This document shows positions 2,757 through 20,152 of a DNA stretch of 32,000 nucleotides, one piece after another. Numbering within the stretch: position 1 is the stretch's first letter; each line of letters starts with the position of its first letter. The notes beneath the pieces were generated by a model. That model saw only the letters and a program-made list of their open reading frames with translations. It made no database searches and had not been told where the DNA came from. The position numbers were made by a program, and so were the translations under genes. Source of the stretch: an uncultured Bacilli bacterium (GTDB lineage Bacteria; Bacillota_I; Bacilli_A; RF39; UBA660); contig CANROY010000003.1 of the NCBI GenBank assembly GCA_947632355.1, forward strand, positions 5,646 to 37,645. Reading direction: 5' to 3'.

Positions 2757-2810
2757 TTTAGGTTACTCCTTTTTTAATTTTATGTTATAATAGTTTTTAA
2801 GGTGGGTAGT

Positions 2811-5363
2811 ATGAAACGTAGTGAAGTAGACAAAGAAAAATTAAGCCCTGGTATGCGTCAATATTATGATATAAAAGAAGAGTATAAAGAAGAATTATTG
2901 TTTTATCGTTTAGGGGATTTTTATGAGTTGTTTTTTGAAGATGGAGAAATCGCCTCTCGTGAACTTGAACTTACATTAACAAGTAAAAATGCTGGATTAG
3001 AAGAAAGAGTACCAATGTGTGGTGTTCCTTTTCATTCTGTAAAACCCTATATTGAGAAATTAGTAAATAAAGGCTATAAAGTGGCGATTTGTGAACAGCT
3101 AGAAGACCCCAAAAATGCTAAAGGAATGGTAAAACGTGGAGTTGTCGAGGTCATCAGTAAAGGTTCTATTGTGGATTCTGACCTTTTAAATGAACACGAC
3201 CACAACTATATTGCGAGTGTTCTAGATTTTTCATTCACCTATGTTTTATGTTACGCTGATATCTCAACTGGTACTCTAAACGTTATGAACGTACAACACA
3301 ACAAAGAAAAATTATTAAATGAGATTCTAAATTTAAAAATCAAAGAAGTGTTATTAAAAGACAATACGGACGTGGAACTCATTAGTACATTAAAAGGCAA
3401 TTATGGAATTGAAGTCTCTATTTCAGATGGATTTTTAGAAGAAGGAATTGAAAAATTACTAAACACAGTAGAAGATATTCGTTTTAAAGAAGGAATTAAA
3501 CATATTCTTTACTATTTAATTGTTCGAGAACTAAAAAGTATCGACCACATTAAGAGTGTGAATGTCATTAATAGCGATGATTATTTAGAGATGGATGTTC
3601 ATACCATTCGTAATTTAGAGTTAGTAGAAACCTTACGTTTAAAAGAAAGAATGTATTCTTTACTATGGCTTTTAGATAAAACAAAAACCTCTATGGGAAG
3701 TCGTAAGTTAAAAGAGTATTTAATTCATCCTTTAAAAGATAAAAAACGTATTGAAGAACGTTTCGATAAAATAACGGTTTTAAATAATGAATTTATTTTA
3801 AAAGACCGCCTAAGAGATGCACTGTACGAAGTCTATGACATAGAACGACTTTGTGGAAAAGTAGCGTGTGGTTCTTTAAACGCTAGAGATTTATTACAAC
3901 TAAAAAATAGTTTAAAAGTCTTACCAACAATAAAAGAAATTGTTTCAGAATTAAAGTTTGATTATGAAATCAATACCCATAACGAACTTTATGAGTTACT
4001 GGAAAGAGGAATTTATGAAGAACCTCCTGTTACCTTAAAAGAAGGTTATTTAATTAAAGAAGGGTATAACGAAGAATTAGATGAACTAAAAAGTATTCGT
4101 AGTGGTGGTAAAAACTTTATTGCAGAGTTTGAAAATAAATTAAAAGAAAGTACCGGAATTAAAAATTTGAAAGTAGGATACACAAGAGTATTTGGTTATT
4201 TCATTGAAGTGAGTAAAGGACAAGTAAAAGAAATTAGTCCGGATTTAAATTGGGAAAGAAGACAAACTCTTGCTAATGCCGAGCGATTTATTTCTCCAGA
4301 ACTAAAAGAAAAAGAAGCCCTTATCTTAAACGCCGAAGAAAAAATCATTGAACTTGAATACAATTTATTTAATGAGATAAAAGAGCAAGTAAAACAAGTT
4401 TTAATTTCTTTAAAAGATACAGCAGAAATCTTAAGCGAACTAGATGCTTTAGCAAGTTTAGCGGTTTGTGCAGAAGAATATGGTTTTGTAAGACCTACGT
4501 TAAATGAAAATCATACGATTGATATCAAAGATGGTTTTCATCCGGTTATTATGAAAGTCAGTAGTGAAGCATTTGTTCCCAATGATTGTTGCATGAATGA
4601 ACAAATTAGTACTCTTTTAATAACAGGACCAAATATGAGTGGTAAATCAACCTATATGAGACAACTCGCCATTATTGTGATTATGGCCCAAATGGGTTCT
4701 TTTGTTCCAGCAAAAAGTGCAAATTTACCGATTATTGATAAAATATTTACACGAATCGGAGCAAGTGATGACTTAGTAAGTGGAGAATCGACGTTTATGG
4801 TGGAAATGAATGAAGCCAAGAATGCTTTAGTAAATGCAACTGAAAATAGTCTAGTCTTATTTGATGAACTCGGTCGTGGTACAGCAACATATGATGGTAT
4901 GAGTCTTGCCTATGCTATACTTGAATATGTCAATGAACATATAAAATGTAAGACGCTTTTTTCAACCCATTATCACGAACTAACAGCTTTAGAAAGAGAA
5001 ATACCAAGTATTAAAAATATTCACGTATCAGCATATGAAGAAGATGGTAAAATTACGTTCTTACATAAAATTAAAAATGGTGCCGTTGATAAAAGTTATG
5101 GAATTCACGTAGCCAAACTTGCTGGAATGCCAAAAGAAGTAACAGATAGAGCAACAACTATTCTAGCATCTTACGAGCAAAAAAAGGAAAAAAATAGTAG
5201 CAATGATAAAGTGCAACTCTCTATGCAATTTGAAGAACCAAAACAAGAAGATCCGATTCAAAAATTCTTAAATGGTGTAGACCCTGTTTATATGACCCCT
5301 ATTGAAGCCATCAATACTTTATACGAATTAAAGAAATTAATGAGTGATAGTAAAAAAATGTAA
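2811..5363 (+). CDS. mutS: DNA mismatch repair protein MutS
   Basis: Domain I carries GDFYELFFEDG. The Walker A motif is TGPNMSGKST, and DELGRGT and STHYHEL are present. ATG 2811 follows the SD AAGGTGG (2799-2805). A TGtTATAAT extended -10 lies at 2783-2791. Confidence 0.97.
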   Translation: MKRSEVDKEKLSPGMRQYYDIKEEYKEELLFYRLGDFYELFFEDGEIASRELELTLTSKNAGLEERVPMCGVPFHSVKPYIEKLVNKGYKVAICEQLEDPKNAKGMVKRGVVEVISKGSIVDSDLLNEHDHNYIASVLDFSFTYVLCYADISTGTLNVMNVQHNKEKLLNEILNLKIKEVLLKDNTDVELISTLKGNYGIEVSISDGFLEEGIEKLLNTVEDIRFKEGIKHILYYLIVRELKSIDHIKSVNVINSDDYLEMDVHTIRNLELVETLRLKERMYSLLWLLDKTKTSMGSRKLKEYLIHPLKDKKRIEERFDKITVLNNEFILKDRLRDALYEVYDIERLCGKVACGSLNARDLLQLKNSLKVLPTIKEIVSELKFDYEINTHNELYELLERGIYEEPPVTLKEGYLIKEGYNEELDELKSIRSGGKNFIAEFENKLKESTGIKNLKVGYTRVFGYFIEVSKGQVKEISPDLNWERRQTLANAERFISPELKEKEALILNAEEKIIELEYNLFNEIKEQVKQVLISLKDTAEILSELDALASLAVCAEEYGFVRPTLNENHTIDIKDGFHPVIMKVSSEAFVPNDCCMNEQISTLLITGPNMSGKSTYMRQLAIIVIMAQMGSFVPAKSANLPIIDKIFTRIGASDDLVSGESTFMVEMNEAKNALVNATENSLVLFDELGRGTATYDGMSLAYAILEYVNEHIKCKTLFSTHYHELTALEREIPSIKNIHVSAYEEDGKITFLHKIKNGAVDKSYGIHVAKLAGMPKEVTDRATTILASYEQKKEKNSSNDKVQLSMQFEEPKQEDPIQKFLNGVDPVYMTPIEAINTLYELKKLMSDSKKM

Positions 5364-5429: not shown

Positions 5430-6194
5430 ATGGAAACTATAGTTTTAACAAATGAAATTCAAAAATATTTAGAAAAGGGAAATGTGGAGTGTAATGATGT
5501 CTTACGTTATTACTTAAATAAAAATATCAAAACTATTTTTGGAAAAGATGACTTTACTTCTCAAGATGTGGAAATCAATTATATCGTTTCTAAAGAAATG
5601 AATTATCAAAAATTACCTCACATAGAAGAGAAAAAGGTTGTATTATTTTTAAATGTGTTAGGTTCTATTTATAGAGTTTATTTGAATGAAGCAGAAAAAA
5701 CACTCGAAATGAAAAAGCAAGGTTTAGAAGTAGGTTTTAAAATTTTTAAAACGAGAAATGGTTTAGCCAATACTTTAACCAATATTCAAAATGCAGAAAC
5801 AATTGTGGAATATCAAAATGTTTCTTTAGAAAAACAAATTTTTGACTATCAAAAAGTAGTGTATACAGTAGATGGCGAAGAAAAAGTTTTTGATGCCTAT
5901 CGTATGAGTCCTATGGGAACAAAAATAAAAGAAAAGGAAGTTTTTTGTCTAGAACCTTTGTTAACCTCTAGGATTGGAACAAAACACGGCGAATTTAATA
6001 ATGGTCCATTATTAAAAAGATTTCTTTCGAATTGCAAAGAAATCTTAGAAAACTTAAAAGTAAAAAGTGAAATCGTAAGTGTTTCTACATCTTATCAATT
6101 AAACGATCCCAAATACTATTTAGAAGAAATATTTCAAATCTTAGAAGAGAAAAGCAAAGAAGATGTTCTTTCTAAAGATAGAAAAATTAGTTAA
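5430..6194 (+). CDS. Hypothetical protein
   Basis: The 254-aa ORF follows the SD AGGAGGG. No motif was recognised. It occupies the slot where mutL often follows mutS in Firmicutes. Confidence 0.55.
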   Translation: METIVLTNEIQKYLEKGNVECNDVLRYYLNKNIKTIFGKDDFTSQDVEINYIVSKEMNYQKLPHIEEKKVVLFLNVLGSIYRVYLNEAEKTLEMKKQGLEVGFKIFKTRNGLANTLTNIQNAETIVEYQNVSLEKQIFDYQKVVYTVDGEEKVFDAYRMSPMGTKIKEKEVFCLEPLLTSRIGTKHGEFNNGPLLKRFLSNCKEILENLKVKSEIVSVSTSYQLNDPKYYLEEIFQILEEKSKEDVLSKDRKIS

Positions 6195-15098: not shown

Positions 15099-15376
15099 GA
15101 TTTGCGTTTAATTTACAACGTTTTGCTCACATTAAAGCTCAAGGTTCTACTAAAAACGGCCGTGATAGTGCTGGTAGAAGACTAGGTGCTAAAGCAAGTG
15201 ATGGAGAATTTGTTAGTGCTGGTTCTATTCTATATCGTCAAAGAGGTACAAAAATTTATCCAGGAACAAACGTTGGAATGGGAAAAGATCACACTTTATT
15301 TGCAAAAATAGATGGTCTTGTTAAATTCGAAAGATTAGGAAGAGATAAAAAGAAAGTAAGCGTTTACGAAAAGTAA
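15092..15376 (+). CDS. rpmA: 50S ribosomal protein L27 with a Prp-cleaved N-terminal extension
   Basis: [12 protein letters not shown] is followed by [20 protein letters not shown]. This is the Firmicutes-type propeptide plus the conserved L27 core. Confidence 0.97.
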
Positions 15377-15386
15377 GCGTTTTTTT
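15361..15386 (+). terminator. Rho-independent terminator of the rplU operon
   Basis: Stem CGTTTAC (15361-15367) pairs with GTAAGCG (15373-15379), including one G-U pair. The loop is GAAAA and a T7 run follows. The hairpin overlaps the rpmA stop codon. Confidence 0.6.
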
Positions 15387-15409: not shown

Positions 15410-15418
15410 TGGTAAAAT
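15410..15418 (+). promoter_or_regulatory. Extended -10 promoter element upstream of the DGR target gene
   Basis: The element is TGgTAAAAT, with no clear -35. It lies 27 nt upstream of ATG 15445. Confidence 0.35.
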
Positions 15419-15475
15419 GAATTTAAGATAAGGAGAGATAAAAAATGAAGAATTTAAGAAATACTCTCCCAACCA

Positions 15476-17473
15476 TTGAAAATCGTCCAATGGGGGGGGG
15501 GTATATTAGAAAGTAATAAAAAAAAGAACCCCAAAAGACGACTCGAAATAATGATTAGTTTGTTAAGTATTGCAGTACTTATTACAGTAGTGTCTTTTAG
15601 TTATGCTTACATAAAAACAAATAAAGAAGAAAAGGATGTCAATGTACTAGGAACTGAGTGTATCAATCTTGAAATGGAAGACTTAAGTAAAGGAATAACT
15701 TTACAACATACATTTCCAGTAAGTGATGCAACAGGAAAATCATCAACACCTTATACATTTAAATTAACCAATGAATGCGGAGTAGGAGTGGATTATGAAA
15801 TTCACTTAAGAGTAGAGGATGTTGAGGAAGGGCAAAAGAAAATAGCTGCAAAGAACATTGCAACTATGATTGATAGTAATGAAAAAGTAGTATTAACGAG
15901 TGAAAAAAAAGTAATCAATGAAGAAGAATCAGATAAAGAAGAATATAAGATTAGTAGTGAAAAATTAACATTAGAGGCTTATCAAGAAATAGAACATGAA
16001 GTAAGAATATGGTTAGATGAGAGTGCAGGAAATGATAGTCAAAATGGTATATTCAAAAGTAAAATCGTGATAGAAGCAATTCAAAATCAAACCGCTTCTA
16101 TTTATAAAGAAACAATTCTACACGGTGCAGATCCGGTGTTGAATAATGAAGAAGAACCAATTGCGATGTTAACAGCAAATGAAGTAGCTGAAGCTCCAAC
16201 AACAACAGATCAATTAATACCTGTCACAATAGATGAAACAACAGGAGAAGTAAAAAGAGCTGATTTATATACGGAATGGTATGATTATGAGACCAAGAAA
16301 TGGGCGAATGCAGTTATCTTAGTCGATAATAATAAAGCAAATGAAATACAACCAGGACAAACGATACAAGAAAATGATATTGAAAGTTATTTTGTATGGA
16401 TACCAAAATATAGTTATAAGTTATTTGATATGGGAAATACGGAAACAACAGTTACAAATGTTGCTAAAAAAGAAAAGCCAATCGAAATTCGTTTTGGAAC
16501 AACAAATACAAGTGATAGTGTAAGTGATGAATGTAAAACACCAACAACATCAGGAGAGATTGGAACTTGTCAAGTGGGTGATTGGATGACGCATCCAGCA
16601 TTCTTAGCATTTGATGCAGATGGGTTATGGGTTGGTAAGTTTGAAACGGGTTACGAAGGTGCTGATAGTACAGCAAATGCAAATAAAAATGAAGTATCTC
16701 CTAACAAAGTAATCATAAAACCAAATGTTTATAGTTGGAGAAATATAACCGTAGGAAACGCATTTAAAACAGCAAAAAACTATGAACCAACTTTACAAAG
16801 TCATATGATGAAGAACACCGAATGGGGAGCTGTTGCCTATTTATCTCATAGTATTTATGGAACATGTGATGGTAGTTCTTGTACTGAAATAAGGATAAAT
16901 AACAGTAGTAGTTATTTAACAGGGGTAAGTGCAAAAACTGTACCTGATTCTGGTTGGAATCAATATAATGGATATGCAGTAACAACTCCAAACACGGAAA
17001 ATGACAAATCTTATGTTTATCCAAAGAGTCAAAAATCGAGTACAACTTTTAATAACACCGGAATCTTTGATATGAGTGGAGGTTCTTGGGAGTATGTTAT
17101 GGGTTATATGAGTGGTAATGTTGGAAGTAGTGGATTAACAGAAGAAACTGATTTAACAGAAGCAAATTCTAAATATTTTGATAAATATGAAAATAAAACT
17201 GATACGGAATGGAGTAAAAGAATCTTAGGCGATGCAACAGGAGAATTAGAGCCATTTGGAATGAAGCAATACAATACAAGTAATAATAGAATTAATTCAT
17301 GGTACGAGGATTGGGCGTGGTTTCCTAACTCTAGTTTACCGTGGTTCAAACGTGGTGGCGCTCGCTATGACGGTGTTACGGCTGGTGTGTTCGCGTTCAG
17401 TCGTCACACGGGTGCTGTCGATGGCAGCGACAGTTTTCGCCTCGTTTGTGCTCCAACGCACGCGAGTGCGTAA
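15476..17473 (+). CDS. DGR target (variable) protein: N-terminal signal-anchor and C-terminal C-type-lectin/FGE-like fold carrying the VR
   Basis: This is the long ORF in the track, but TTG 15476 has no SD. The only good SD/ATG (AAGGAGAG, then ATG 15445) is one frame off and joins this frame only if the G10 tract (15492-15501) has 9 or 12 G. A basic stretch plus TM helix (KKKNPKRRLEIMISLLSIAVLITVVSF) is present. The FGE-like segment reads HMMKNTEWGAVAYL. The C-terminus WFKRGGARYDGVTAGVFAFSRHTGAVDGSDSFRLVCAP is the VR. Confidence 0.85.
   Translation: MKIVQWGGGILESNKKKNPKRRLEIMISLLSIAVLITVVSFSYAYIKTNKEEKDVNVLGTECINLEMEDLSKGITLQHTFPVSDATGKSSTPYTFKLTNECGVGVDYEIHLRVEDVEEGQKKIAAKNIATMIDSNEKVVLTSEKKVINEEESDKEEYKISSEKLTLEAYQEIEHEVRIWLDESAGNDSQNGIFKSKIVIEAIQNQTASIYKETILHGADPVLNNEEEPIAMLTANEVAEAPTTTDQLIPVTIDETTGEVKRADLYTEWYDYETKKWANAVILVDNNKANEIQPGQTIQENDIESYFVWIPKYSYKLFDMGNTETTVTNVAKKEKPIEIRFGTTNTSDSVSDECKTPTTSGEIGTCQVGDWMTHPAFLAFDADGLWVGKFETGYEGADSTANANKNEVSPNKVIIKPNVYSWRNITVGNAFKTAKNYEPTLQSHMMKNTEWGAVAYLSHSIYGTCDGSSCTEIRINNSSSYLTGVSAKTVPDSGWNQYNGYAVTTPNTENDKSYVYPKSQKSSTTFNNTGIFDMSGGSWEYVMGYMSGNVGSSGLTEETDLTEANSKYFDKYENKTDTEWSKRILGDATGELEPFGMKQYNTSNNRINSWYEDWAWFPNSSLPWFKRGGARYDGVTAGVFAFSRHTGAVDGSDSFRLVCAPTHASA
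15492..15501 (+). repeat. G10 homopolymer at the 5' end of the DGR target gene; candidate slipped-strand phase-variation tract
   Basis: Ten consecutive G occur in a strongly AT-rich genome. The tract sits exactly between the SD-preceded ATG 15445 and the main ORF frame. Confidence 0.6.
17321..17455 (+). repeat. DGR variable repeat (VR)
   Basis: The VR aligns over 135 bp with 17649-17783 at an offset of 328. The 11 mismatches are at 17336, 17337, 17360, 17361, 17364, 17366, 17400, 17405, 17420, 17427 and 17429. All correspond to A in the TR. Confidence 0.95.
17456..17471 (+). promoter_or_regulatory. GC-rich hairpin directly abutting the VR 3' end; candidate DGR target-recognition element
   Basis: ACGCAC (17456-17461), loop GCGA, then GTGCGT (17466-17471). 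The hairpin overlaps the stop codon (17471-17473) and is absent downstream of the TR. Confidence 0.6.
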
Positions 17474-17540: not shown

Positions 17541-17578
17541 TTCGCCCAATTCCTATCTTGTTTAAGGAATTGGGCGAA
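17541..17578 (+). other. Perfect 13-bp stem-loop between VR and TR
   Basis: TTCGCCCAATTCC (17541-17553), a 12-nt loop, then GGAATTGGGCGAA (17566-17578). No U tract follows immediately. Confidence 0.6.
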
Positions 17579-17648
17579 TAGAAAAATTTTTGGTCTTAAT
17601 AGTTTATATAGATTAAGACAGGGATTAGATTGTAATAGAACGTTTGAG

Positions 17649-17783
17649 TTTCCTAACTCTAGTAAACCGTGGTTCAAACGTGGTGGCAATCACAATGACG
17701 GTGTTACGGCTGGTGTGTTCGCGTTCAATCGTAACACGGGTGCTGTCAATGGCAACAACAGTTTTCGCCTCGTTTGTGCTCCA
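17649..17783 (+). repeat. DGR template repeat (TR)
   Basis: The TR is noncoding. In the VR frame it reads FPNSSKPWFKRGGNHNDGVTAGVFAFNRNTGAVNGNNSFRLVCAP and contains 8 AAY codons. By my count it has 29 adenines, 11 of which are substituted in the VR. The last 22 nt before the terminal CCA contain no A. Confidence 0.95.
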
Positions 17784-18005: not shown

Positions 18006-18194
18006 ATGGAAATAAATTTAAAAGAAATAAGAAAATCTTGTGGATTTACGCAAGAAGAACTGGCAAAAAAACTAGGGGTAACCCAACAACAATATTCAAG
18101 GTATGAAACCAAAACAAATAAAATAACATTAGAAATGTTTTTAAAAATAATAAAAGTATGTAAATTAGAGATAAAAATAGAAAAAAATAAGTAA
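18006..18194 (+). CDS. XRE-family helix-turn-helix protein inside the DGR cassette
   Basis: MEINLKEIRKSCGFTQEELAKKLGVTQQQYSRYE is the classic HTH_3 pattern. The SD is GGAAGGAAAGG (17991-18000). ATG 18006 is preferred over the TTG 17988 start in the track. Confidence 0.8.
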   Translation: MEINLKEIRKSCGFTQEELAKKLGVTQQQYSRYETKTNKITLEMFLKIIKVCKLEIKIEKNK

Positions 18195-18399: not shown

Positions 18400-18759
18400 A
18401 TGAGTGAAATTTATAATCAATATAAAAAATTAAAAGAAGAGAATAAGAAAAAAATGTATTTATTTAAAGTTGGTAATTTTTATATTTTTTTAGATGAGGA
18501 TGCAGAAAAAATAAATGATTATGTTGTATTAAAGAAAACACCATTTTGTAAAGAAGTAATGAAATGCGGTTTTCCTGTAAATAGATTAGAAGATTATATG
18601 AAAGTTTTTCATAATCATAAGTTACCAATTTCGATAATAGAAAATGAAAAAAAGTGTGATTTGGAACAAGTTATACAACATCTTAGAAAAATAGATTTGA
18701 ATAAATTAACTCCTATAAAAGCACTAAACCTTCTATATGAAATAAAAGAGATGCTATGA
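18400..18759 (+). CDS. MutS-like (MSL) DGR accessory protein: MutS domain I-like N-terminus plus MutS C-terminal tail motif
   Basis: YLFKVGNFYIFLDEDAEKIN...MKCGFPVNRLEDYMKVF aligns with [20 protein letters not shown]...[17 protein letters not shown] of the bona fide MutS in this window. The C-terminus IDLNKLTPIKALNLLYEIKEML aligns with the MutS C-terminus VDPVYMTPIEAINTLYELKKLM. The stop overlaps the avd start (ATGA). Confidence 0.75.
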   Translation: MSEIYNQYKKLKEENKKKMYLFKVGNFYIFLDEDAEKINDYVVLKKTPFCKEVMKCGFPVNRLEDYMKVFHNHKLPISIIENEKKCDLEQVIQHLRKIDLNKLTPIKALNLLYEIKEML

Positions 18760-19115
18760 TGAAAAATGTAGAAGATTTACTTATTTATAAGCAATATATT
18801 GAACTTATTTATTATACAGAAATGATTTTGGATAAATATCCAAAAAGTGAGCGTTTTGCTATTGTTACGGCGATTAAAAATAATACTTATGATGGGATGA
18901 GAAGTTTACTAAGTGCGTATAAAGAATATCAAAAAGAAAAAAAATATCATTATTTAAATCAATTAGATACAACACTTAAAATGTTAAAAGTCATGATTCG
19001 AGTATCCTATAAACGAAAGTATATAAATGTTAAAAATTATACGGCTTGGAGCAAAAAAATAACCAATATTGGAAATTTACTTGGAGGATGGATGAAGTCG
19101 TGTCAAAGACAATAA
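18756..19115 (+). CDS. avd: DGR accessory variability determinant (Avd), four-helix-bundle family
   Basis: The 119-aa basic protein contains LIYKQYIELIYYTEMILDKYPKSERFAIVTAIKNN...GGWMK, which is typical of the Avd / 23S-IVS four-helix-bundle family. It lies immediately upstream of the RT and overlaps it. Confidence 0.85.
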   Translation: MMKNVEDLLIYKQYIELIYYTEMILDKYPKSERFAIVTAIKNNTYDGMRSLLSAYKEYQKEKKYHYLNQLDTTLKMLKVMIRVSYKRKYINVKNYTAWSKKITNIGNLLGGWMKSCQRQ

Positions 19116-20152
19116 AAAATATATTTTATAAAAAATTAACCTTTATTAAACTCATTGAAGCCCATGATAGGGCAAGAGAAGGAAAAAATACACGACCTGA
19201 AATTATTCGATTTGAAATGAATTTAGAAAGTAATATTATCAATTTACTTTATAAAATAAAAAGTAAGCAGTATAAAATTGGTAAATATCGAGAATTTTAT
19301 GTATATGAGCCGAAAGAAAGACTTATAAAATCTTTACCTTATATAGATAGAATTGTACATCAATGGTATGTAGAAGAATTTATTAAACCATTTTTTATTC
19401 CTCGCTTTATTAAAGATTCTTATGCTTGTTTAAAAGATAAAGGAGGACATAAAGCTGTTTTAAGAATGCAAGATTTTATGCGTCGTATGAAAAGAAAATA
19501 TAAAAATTATTATGTTTTAAAATGTGATATAAAAAAATATTTTTATAATATTGATAAAAACATTTTATATTCGATACTAGAAAAATCAATAACGGATAAA
19601 GAATTATTAAATTTTTCCAAAGTAATTATATTTGATAATGATGAAAAGAAAGGGATTCCTATTGGCAATTATACAAGTCAATTTTTTGCTAATATTTATT
19701 TAAATGAATTAGACCATTATGTTAAAGAAGATTTAGGACTACCTTATTACATAAGATATATGGATGATTTTATACTTCTTTTACCTACAAAAGATGATGC
19801 AAAGCAAATAAAAGAAAAAATAAAAAATTTTTTAGAACAAAATTTAAAATTAGAATTAAATGCTAAAAGTAAATATTATCCTAGTAAAATGGGTATTGAT
19901 TTTTGCGGGTATCGTATTTTTGAAACGCATTTATTAATTCGTAAAAGAAGTAAAGCAAAAATAAAAAAATTAATTAAATCGTGGAATTGTTTTTATAAAG
20001 AAGGAAATTTAAATTTAGAAAATGTGATTCAAAGATGGAATGCGTGGAGAGGACATATTTCCCACGCTAATACTTATCATTTAGAGAATAAATATTTGGA
20101 TAAAATACTTTTTAAAGAATCCTTAAAAACGAAAAAAGAAACTTCAATTTAA
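19088..20152 (+). CDS. DGR-type reverse transcriptase
   Basis: RT motifs are present: PKERLIKSLPYIDRIVHQW, LKCDIKKYFYNID, the DGR-signature IGNYTSQFFANIYLNELD, and YIRYMDDFILL (YMDD). The start is ambiguous: ATG 19088, or GTG 19100 after GGAGG at 19083-19087. The start of track ORF 19046 is unlikely. The gene overlaps the avd 3' end. Confidence 0.93.
   Translation: MDEVVSKTIKNIFYKKLTFIKLIEAHDRAREGKNTRPEIIRFEMNLESNIINLLYKIKSKQYKIGKYREFYVYEPKERLIKSLPYIDRIVHQWYVEEFIKPFFIPRFIKDSYACLKDKGGHKAVLRMQDFMRRMKRKYKNYYVLKCDIKKYFYNIDKNILYSILEKSITDKELLNFSKVIIFDNDEKKGIPIGNYTSQFFANIYLNELDHYVKEDLGLPYYIRYMDDFILLLPTKDDAKQIKEKIKNFLEQNLKLELNAKSKYYPSKMGIDFCGYRIFETHLLIRKRSKAKIKKLIKSWNCFYKEGNLNLENVIQRWNAWRGHISHANTYHLENKYLDKILFKESLKTKKETSI

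Follow-up and report, generated by a model that had tools for sequence, protein, structure and literature searches.

Can one bacterial gene carry both a device for targeted hypermutation and a switch that turns its translation on and off? The question is raised by a 32,000-nucleotide stretch of contig CANROY010000003.1 from an uncultured Bacilli bacterium (the whole stretch is called the window below), in which the target gene of a diversity-generating retroelement (DGR) has, near its 5' end, a run of ten guanines (G10, 15492-15501) that leaves the start codon and the rest of the gene in different reading frames. A first-pass annotation of the window had proposed that changes in the length of this tract switch the target protein ON and OFF. 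DGRs and simple-repeat phase variation are, to our knowledge, the best-known forms of targeted variation in bacteria and have so far been treated as separate strategies. Here we conclude that slipped-strand translational phase variation, with the copy in the window currently OFF, is the best explanation of the locus and probably the correct one. Judged by sequence comparison, the phase-switch interpretation is supported at the level of the gene family and is unproven for the window locus itself.

The G Tract Separates the Start Codon from the Body of the Gene

The start codon ATG 15445-15447 begins 7 nt after a strong Shine-Dalgarno sequence (SD), AAGGAGAG at 15430-15437; the first-pass annotation had recognized this SD and given the spacing as 8 nt, a trivial difference. 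From this ATG the frame reads MKNLRNTLPTIENRPMGGG through the tract, then YIRK, and ends at TAA 15514-15516. The body of the gene, 656 open codons, is in the +1 frame relative to this leader. The ORF finder lists it within a 665-codon open reading frame (ORF) that runs from TTG 15476 to 17473 and is closed on its 5' side by TAA 15455-15457; the earliest starts of this long frame, TTG 15476 and ATG 15551, are both without an SD. The course of the two frames and the lack of an SD at the internal starts, both described previously, were borne out by a check of the sequence.

Rebuilding the tract in silico gave a 675-aa fusion with nine guanines (G9) and a 676-aa fusion with twelve, as had been predicted, the first 19-20 leader codons becoming the N-terminus of the target protein. 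The sequences with G7, G8, G10, G11, and G13 each stopped after 20-24 codons. In the rebuilt sequences a change of one unit in the tract therefore toggles between a full-length and a truncated product.

Chance does not account for the G10 run, the sole run of six or more G or C in the 32-kb window, which has a GC content of 29%; the next-longest G runs are three of five nucleotides, and there is no C run of five or more. The expected number of G10/C10 runs in the window under an independent, identically distributed base composition is ~6e-4, and none of 100 dinucleotide-preserving shuffles of the window had four G7 matches. The earlier judgment that a chance origin is improbable thus stands.

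In-Frame Homologues Retain the Leader, and Public Gene Models of OFF Copies Miss It

With the G9-fused target sequence as protein query we searched for homologues. The window's own target protein in NCBI, P0001, is a 640-aa model annotated from ATG 15551, so that the annotation skips the leader. The N-terminus predicted from the fusion was found in the in-frame G9 homologues P0002 (MNNFKKNLPTSENRRLGGGILDNNKKKEPRR...) and P0013, and the in-frame alleles that carry it comprise P0002, P0013, P0124, P0127, P0156, and P0244. Other homologues have been called from the equivalent off-frame TTG and read MKIVVWGGG... (P0007, P0009, P0043). In a third group the gene calls are truncated to internal starts. 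Public models of the OFF state (P0001, P0005, P0008, P0010, P0014, P0022, and P0245-P0247) begin at arbitrary internal Met, Val, or TTG codons and are 400-640 aa long. Annotation pipelines systematically mis-start or truncate this family, hiding the leader. Most of the wider protein family, which has thousands of members, starts with an ordinary signal peptide (MSKKKVIIVG...SYAMF) and has no G tract.

The leader peptide consensus M-K-rich-(N/I/D)LPT-x5-6-L-GGG is kept in the homologues. The DNA of four loci found by homology contained five leader tracts, two of them in L004, and all five shared one architecture: SD, ATG, ~7 codons, aaCCTCCCAAC, 15-18 nt, Gn, and TATATTAGA. The tract is G9 at the P0002 and P0013 loci and G10 in the other three. 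Each of the six leader tracts reached by protein homology alone contained a CCTCCCAAC-type motif.

These homologues bear on the possibility that the tract is irrelevant, with translation starting internally at ATG 15551 or TTG 15476 and ATG 15445 belonging to a short upstream ORF. The NCBI model does begin at ATG 15551, and a product starting MISLLSIAVLITVV... could still insert into the membrane. Neither candidate start has an SD, however, in a Firmicute-type organism whose other genes have strong SDs; a start at ATG 15551 would drop the basic n-region; leader, tract, and n-region are kept as one reading unit in the in-frame homologues; and gene callers pick inconsistent internal starts in the OFF paralogues. 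We regard an internal start as very unlikely.

The Gene Is the Target of a DGR

The DGR of the window is real: it has the adenine pattern of a template repeat (TR) and a variable repeat (VR), a reverse transcriptase (RT) by the TR, the accessory protein Avd, and a target with a TaqVP-like fold. The TR and VR form a 136-nt pair that is 92% identical, and all 11 mismatches are at adenines of the TR. The RT matches only generic NCBIfam RT families, all below their cut-offs.

The target protein consists of a basic n-region, a transmembrane (TM)/signal helix (nt ~15530-15601), an N-terminal beta domain, and a C-terminal variable-protein domain. Pfam and NCBIfam searches returned no family for it, and a PDB sequence search with the C-terminal domain returned nothing meaningful. 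An AlphaFold (AF2) model built from 38 homologues had a pLDDT of 82.6 and an N-terminal helix at residues 19-42. Its top fold match in the PDB was TaqVP, the DGR variable protein of Thermus aquaticus (5vf4, E 3.5e-7, probability 1.00); the TM-scores of this match, 0.27 and 0.45, are modest because the query is multi-domain. In the model the VR sits in a C-terminal variable-protein fold of the TaqVP type, an identity that comes entirely from the fold comparison, the sequence profiles being silent.

One Leader Cassette Heads a Large Family of Genes

We scanned one genome per GTDB species for the pattern CTCCCAAC-N12-20-TG8+ and obtained at least 112 loci, which came to at least 97 unique cassettes after GC-rich chance matches and duplicates had been removed. 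The cassette is made up of an extended -10 element, SD, ATG, ~7 codons, CTCCCAAC, Gn, and TATATTAG, and it heads at least 97 long ORFs. Counts over the family, here and below, are those among the matches listed. The hosts are AT-rich metagenome-assembled genomes (MAGs) from the gut labelled uncultured Bacilli or Tenericutes; two cassette-bearing assemblies labelled Muribaculaceae look mislabelled. The sources are rabbit ('Lapin' MAGs), wild and laboratory mouse, Hadza humans, and several SRA-derived sets. At least 37 cassettes occur in Lapin-021_bin68 and at least 20 in Lapin-026_bin87. A comparable scan of JGI metagenome contigs for the leader pattern gave six unrelated matches, all GC-rich and due to chance, so the cassette family is absent from that collection.

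The 97 tracts comprised 7 of G8, 11 of G9, 77 of G10, and 2 of G11. In 93 of the 95 informative loci a tract of 6, 9, or 12 G puts leader and body in one frame; in the other 2 it takes 7, 10, or 13 G. Only 10 of the 95, all of them G9, are currently in frame, compared with one third expected for random frames (p = 3e-7); in the two rabbit MAGs 4 of 37 and 5 of 20 copies are ON. With G10 as the modal length and G9 as the in-frame length of nearly all loci, copies are OFF by default and a minority is ON. Whichever OFF frame is read, a stop follows within 1-4 codons in every family locus. Outside the leader, only four G or C runs of seven or more were found in 649 kb of family loci.

The spread of tract lengths is informative about an assembly or sequencing artefact, in which the true tract would be G9, the gene would be in frame, and G10 would have been miscalled. 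The window locus is known from a single assembly, and homopolymers of ten are error-prone. Against this, independent MAG projects (rabbit, mouse, Hadza, and several SRA-derived sets) yield G10 more often than any other length, and G8, G9, and G11 are called elsewhere in the same assemblies, so that a systematic +1 error across pipelines is unlikely. An artefact at the window locus seems to us quite improbable.

Nor does the family look like one of decaying genes. The window gene is out of frame in the sole sequence available and might be taken for a pseudogene, the frameshifted relic of a DGR target. A long or contig-truncated +1-frame ORF is, however, kept in 75 of the 77 G10 loci, which indicates that OFF copies are not decaying, and in the window the +1 frame is open over its 656 codons, VR and TR are intact with differences at A sites only, and Avd and RT are intact. 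We find a pseudogene hardly credible.

The bodies behind the cassette are mosaic: 45 of the 97 share the C-terminal variable-protein domain of the window protein, its N-terminal domain, or both, and the remaining cassette genes have unrelated bodies of 240-500 aa. Because unrelated bodies share it, the cassette is best described as a portable expression module for secreted proteins, with DGRs targeting a subset. The tract had been presented in the first-pass annotation as a trait of the DGR target; it is indeed on a DGR target but is not peculiar to it, the cassette being shared by the secreted proteins of a large mosaic family, only some of them DGR targets. A second leader-bearing DGR target is encoded at L014 (G9, ON); in the VR/TR pair that belongs to this locus, 11 of the first 13 mismatches fall on adenines of the TR. 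At L009 a TR-like repeat was too diverged to call. No RT or Avd homologues were found in the 8-kb family loci, which yielded one MutS_I homologue and many HTH genes.

Two further poly-G sites came to light in these loci. In the Hadza MAG CAKOOU, an element TCTCTCTCCCAACCCCAAAATTCGTT-G11-TATAAAGAGATATAATTTTTT is repeated in three copies with flanking inverted repeats (L015 ~47-83, L085, and L089); it matched the search pattern, and we set it aside as unrelated and not a leader cassette. On the minus strand of L072 (~5929-5950) the sequence TTGACA-acgatc-G9-t-TATAAT places a G9 within the spacer of a consensus promoter, and this site may represent a second poly-G type in the lineage, resembling promoter-spacer phase variation.

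Tract Length Varies between Near-Identical Loci

The first orthologue set was found by a search with a family member from a mouse MAG. A protein cluster at 90% identity holds products of 517 aa (P0156, P0244) and of 416-418 aa (P0245-P0247), and its DNA, from seven independent assemblies, is one locus, 3' of a pyruvate:ferredoxin oxidoreductase (PFOR) gene. Where the contigs overlap, identity is 99.5-100% across the 300 nt before the tract and the 1500 nt after it, with no other indel; contig L130 diverges farther upstream of the tract. The tract is G8 in L111 and L130, G9 in L129, and G10 in L124, L126, L127, and L128. The spacer at this locus is one base shorter, which makes G10 the in-frame length: G10 gives the 517-aa ON product, and the G8 and G9 assemblies have the 416-418-aa gene calls. 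G10 is still the commonest allele, and since it is the mode in both registers, the mode looks mutational and not frame-driven. Comparison of tract length at homologous loci had been suggested as a check on the switch, and three lengths at one near-identical locus are what a phase switch predicts.

Other comparisons gave similar results. The flanks of L123 and L092 are identical over 190 nt, and the two loci, one ON and the other OFF, differ by one base at the 3' boundary of the tract; L125 and L131 show the same boundary pattern. Some alleles (L123 versus L092, on the minus strand near the locus start; L125 versus L131; the G11 of L007) have G10 or G11 followed by ATATT instead of Gn followed by TATATT. 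This boundary T-to-G change (GGT to GGG, synonymous) adds one G to the tract and shifts the in-frame length from G9 to G10. In the P0127 cluster one N-terminus has been called in all three frames, as MKKEEKKSLPTRGVNLGGGILESNPG..., MVSTWGGGILESNPG..., and MEEKRRKENPPNPWCQPGRGGILESNPG..., and the closest paralogue pair among the matches listed, with flanks 96.5% identical, is G8 versus G10. Tract indels are far commoner than indels elsewhere in these sequences, the signature of a hypermutable simple-sequence repeat. The slipped-strand switch put forward in the first-pass annotation is thus backed at the family level by orthologue polymorphism and intact OFF bodies and at the window locus is a prediction from these relatives.

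The same data speak to programmed recoding, in which full-length protein would be made from G10 by a +1/-2 ribosomal frameshift (GGG_GGG_GGG_G) or from G9 transcripts produced by slippage of RNA polymerase. This would mean low constitutive expression of all copies and not switching at the DNA level. G10 is present at 77 of the 97 loci and 75 of these need the same +1 shift; any shift within the G run re-pairs perfectly; ribosomes could pause at GGG codons and at an SD-like G run; and a stable predicted hairpin involves the tract. The variation just described is difficult to accommodate, however. Ten loci are in frame at G9, the nine with G8 or G11 need a different shift, and the PFOR-linked orthologue, with its G8, G9, and G10 alleles and its in-frame G10, shows that the frame is not fixed relative to tract length. 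Moreover, neither a stop nor a rare codon marks the shift site, the nearest stop being 3-4 codons away; a downstream stimulator is lacking as well, the hairpin having the tract itself as its 3' arm; and transcriptional slippage is documented mainly for A/T runs. Programmed recoding is in our view unlikely as the principal mechanism; it may add leakiness atop DNA-level switching, the two not being exclusive.

Several points weigh against a phase switch at the window locus. This locus was sampled once (P0001 has one member on one contig), and neither an exact-protein look-up of P0001 nor a flank scan of JGI metagenome contigs returned a second copy, so that variation at its tract is inferred from its relatives. 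All sequences are MAG or metagenome consensus, and several informative ENA contigs have 2-4x coverage, at which homopolymer errors are possible; at the PFOR-linked locus, however, G10 is common to three NCBI MAGs, and G8 is the length in the representative MAG. Exactly G10 is found in 79% of the loci, as a strict G10 requirement under programmed recoding would also give. Finally, full-length MutS, with all five domains, is encoded at 2802-5363 of the window, and for this reason the organism is probably not deficient in mismatch repair (MMR) as Campylobacter is, and switching rates may be modest. MMR status bears on the mutability of the tract; the ORF after MutS (5430-6194) is just 254 aa, and MutL is not in its usual adjacent position.

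Expression Signals, the Leader Hairpin, and Neighbouring Genes

The coordinates of the features are collected in Table 1. The target gene follows rplU-ysxB-rpmA, and the intrinsic terminator of rpmA isolates it as a transcription unit of its own. The extended -10 element is omitted by a consensus promoter scan because it has no -35; paralogous loci such as L093, L004, and L005 likewise have a TGTGnTAnAnT motif 5' of the SD.

Table 1. Features of the window locus and of related loci; positions are those of the window unless a locus is named.
Feature	Position	Strand	Basis or remark
Intrinsic terminator of upstream rpmA (L27), then T-run	15358..15382	+	Terminator scan
Extended -10 element, TGgTAAAAT	15410..15418	+	Read by eye; putative promoter
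SD, AAGGAGAG, 7 nt before ATG 15445	15430..15437	+	Family equivalent GGAGGAG
Leader ORF at G10, MKNLRNTLPTIENRPMGGGYIRK then stop	15445..15516	+	Translation
Predicted 16-bp hairpin, CUCUCCC:G tract plus inner CCAUUG/CAAUGG stem	15461..15504	+	Folding
CTCTCCCAAC motif; family form CCTCCCAAC (Leu-Pro-Thr codons)	15464..15473	+	Complementary to G tract and SD
G10 homopolymer, proposed slipped-strand switch	15492..15501	+	G9/G12 ON; G8, G10 (present), G11 OFF
Target protein body, +1 frame relative to leader	15502..17473	+	ORF list
VR, at 3' end of target ORF	17320..17455	+	Repeat comparison with TR
13-bp perfect inverted repeat, TTCGCCCAATTCC...GGAATTGGGCGAA, 3' of VR, between target stop and TR	17543..17580	+	Read directly
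TR	17648..17783	+	Repeat comparison with VR
Small Xre-type HTH protein	18006..18194	+	Pfam HTH_3 E 9e-17
Protein with MutS domain I alone, 119 aa; candidate DGR accessory protein	18400..18759	+	Pfam MutS_I E 1e-11; NCBIfam mutS N-terminus
Accessory protein Avd	18756..19115	+	Pfam bAvd E 8e-21; NCBIfam DivGenRetAVD 83.3 bits, cut-off 80
DGR reverse transcriptase	19046..20152	+	Pfam RVT_1 E 1.5e-16; ORF bounds, true start probably slightly downstream
Xre HTH homologues by leader-bearing genes	L001 7974-8156; L002 7902-8084; L124 1602-1793; L129 2758-2943; L130 2076-2267		tblastn, gene calls

The predicted leader hairpin has a minimum free energy (MFE) of -22.6 kcal/mol (z -2.85). The conserved CCUCCC (L001-L116), contributed by the Leu-Pro codons CTC CCA, could pair by complementarity with either the G tract or the SD sequence GGAGG, and its predicted MFE partner is the G tract in 78 of 90 family loci and the SD in 12; the search pattern had fixed both the CCUCCC motif and the G tract, which makes conservation of the pairing a biased test. 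As far as folding predictions go, the hairpin might hide the SD-like G run, affect initiation, or promote slippage. A hairpin that sequesters the SD (GGAGG:CCUCC, with an apparently compensatory GGAGAG:CUCUCC in the window) was also considered, but folding mostly pairs CUCCC with the G tract instead.

The inverted repeat between the target stop and the TR could be a terminator, a hairpin for target recognition by the DGR, or both; some DGRs need a hairpin or cruciform element downstream of the VR. Polarity coupling of target translation to expression of TR and RT was judged unlikely, given the 13-bp hairpin and T-rich tail after the target gene.

The Xre HTH ORF is listed from TTG 17988, and ATG 18006 carries an SD. 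In other family loci Xre HTH genes abut the stop codon of leader-bearing genes or overlap it by 4 nt; in the window the TR separates the target from the HTH gene. The adjacency in those other loci suggests translational coupling of the HTH gene to the ON state, with feedback regulation a possible consequence. The gene for the MutS-domain-I-only protein, domain I being the part of MutS that recognizes mismatches, is placed between the HTH gene and Avd and has a homologue of 60% identity in L065.

Discussion

A mechanism for the switch can be proposed from these observations. The gene would be transcribed from a promoter of its own, the extended -10 element that follows the rpmA terminator, and ribosomes loading at the SD would begin at ATG 15445 and enter the G tract after 15 codons. 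A tract of 9 or 12 G would, by translation and modelling, let them read on to a pre-protein of 675-676 aa comprising, in order, the leader, the basic n-region, the signal/TM helix, and the DGR-diversified TaqVP-like C-terminal domain; with 8, 10 (the present length), or 11 G they would terminate within 1-4 codons and make no full-length protein. Slipped-strand mispairing during replication would alter the tract length reversibly, presumably within populations, so that each cell lineage would switch its target ON or OFF, and dozens of cassette-bearing paralogues would each do so independently. The DGR, acting through TR, Avd, and RT, would rewrite the VR at the DNA level, independently of translation. 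Given that independence, ON/OFF switching and hypermutation of the ligand-binding tip would be two stacked layers on one gene.

The closest parallel to the switch is provided by the opa genes of Neisseria. There, as here, a multigene family of surface proteins carries a repeat in the part coding for the leader or signal peptide, the repeat number sets the translational frame, and copies switch independently, most being OFF. The opa repeat is a CTCTT pentamer in ~11 paralogues, whereas here it is a G homopolymer in at least 37 copies per genome; the present hosts, moreover, are Gram-positive-type, AT-rich, uncultured gut bacteria, the bodies are unrelated, and some copies are DGR targets. The poly-G contingency loci of Campylobacter jejuni and Helicobacter pylori resemble the present tracts in being G8-G11 in AT-rich genomes, in shifting frames ON and OFF, and in differing in length between close strains around a mode of ~G9-G10. 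Unlike the tracts described here, those are found at varied positions in unrelated genes, without a shared leader cassette or common register, and C. jejuni is without MutS/MutL, whereas the window encodes full-length MutS. With programmed frameshifting and transcriptional slippage (prfB, dnaX, insertion sequence (IS) elements) the locus shares an out-of-frame body behind a slippery homopolymer and a short leader ORF; it differs from them in that orthologues do not share one fixed frame relationship, a canonical stimulator is lacking, and tract length is polymorphic.

The diversification module of the window is a canonical DGR. As with the variable proteins TaqVP, TvpA, and Mtd, TR and VR differ solely at TR adenines, Avd and RT are adjacent, and the VR is at the C-terminal end of a TaqVP-like fold; compared with known DGRs, the window cassette adds the MutS-domain-I-only protein and the Xre HTH gene between TR and Avd. 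What is distinct is the presence of both mechanisms on one gene, a portable cassette of common register on unrelated bodies, the number of copies that a genome carries, and the hosts, which are spore-forming, MutS-encoding, AT-rich uncultured gut Bacilli. The first-pass annotation knew of no earlier description of this combination as a feature of DGRs, and our full-text literature search, whose coverage was incomplete and which is not proof of absence, likewise returned no DGR target gated by a simple-sequence repeat.

More tentatively, and with somewhat less than even confidence in all its parts jointly, we suggest that uncultured AT-rich gut Bacilli, represented by MAGs from rabbit, mouse, and human, possess a two-layer system of surface variation. 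Dozens of secreted proteins per genome would share one promoter-SD-leader-poly-G cassette; the mutationally favoured G10 would keep most copies OFF, so that each cell displays a small random subset; the DGR would rewrite some of the silent copies, with stochastic switching sampling variants diversified beforehand; and control by feedback or by sensing of tract length could be superimposed through the Xre HTH protein and the two alternative partners of CCUCCC, the SD and the G tract.

One gene of the window carries both a DGR and a repeat switch, and the switch cassette heads at least 37 genes in one genome from a little-known group of gut commensals. If the interpretation is true, automated annotation systematically mis-starts or truncates these genes, as in P0001 and the many calls that read MKIVVWGGG... 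or begin at an internal Met. Gram-positive-type gut commensals would then use families of contingency loci on the scale of Neisseria, Campylobacter, or Mycoplasma, and DGR diversification could run in silent copies that are unmasked stochastically.

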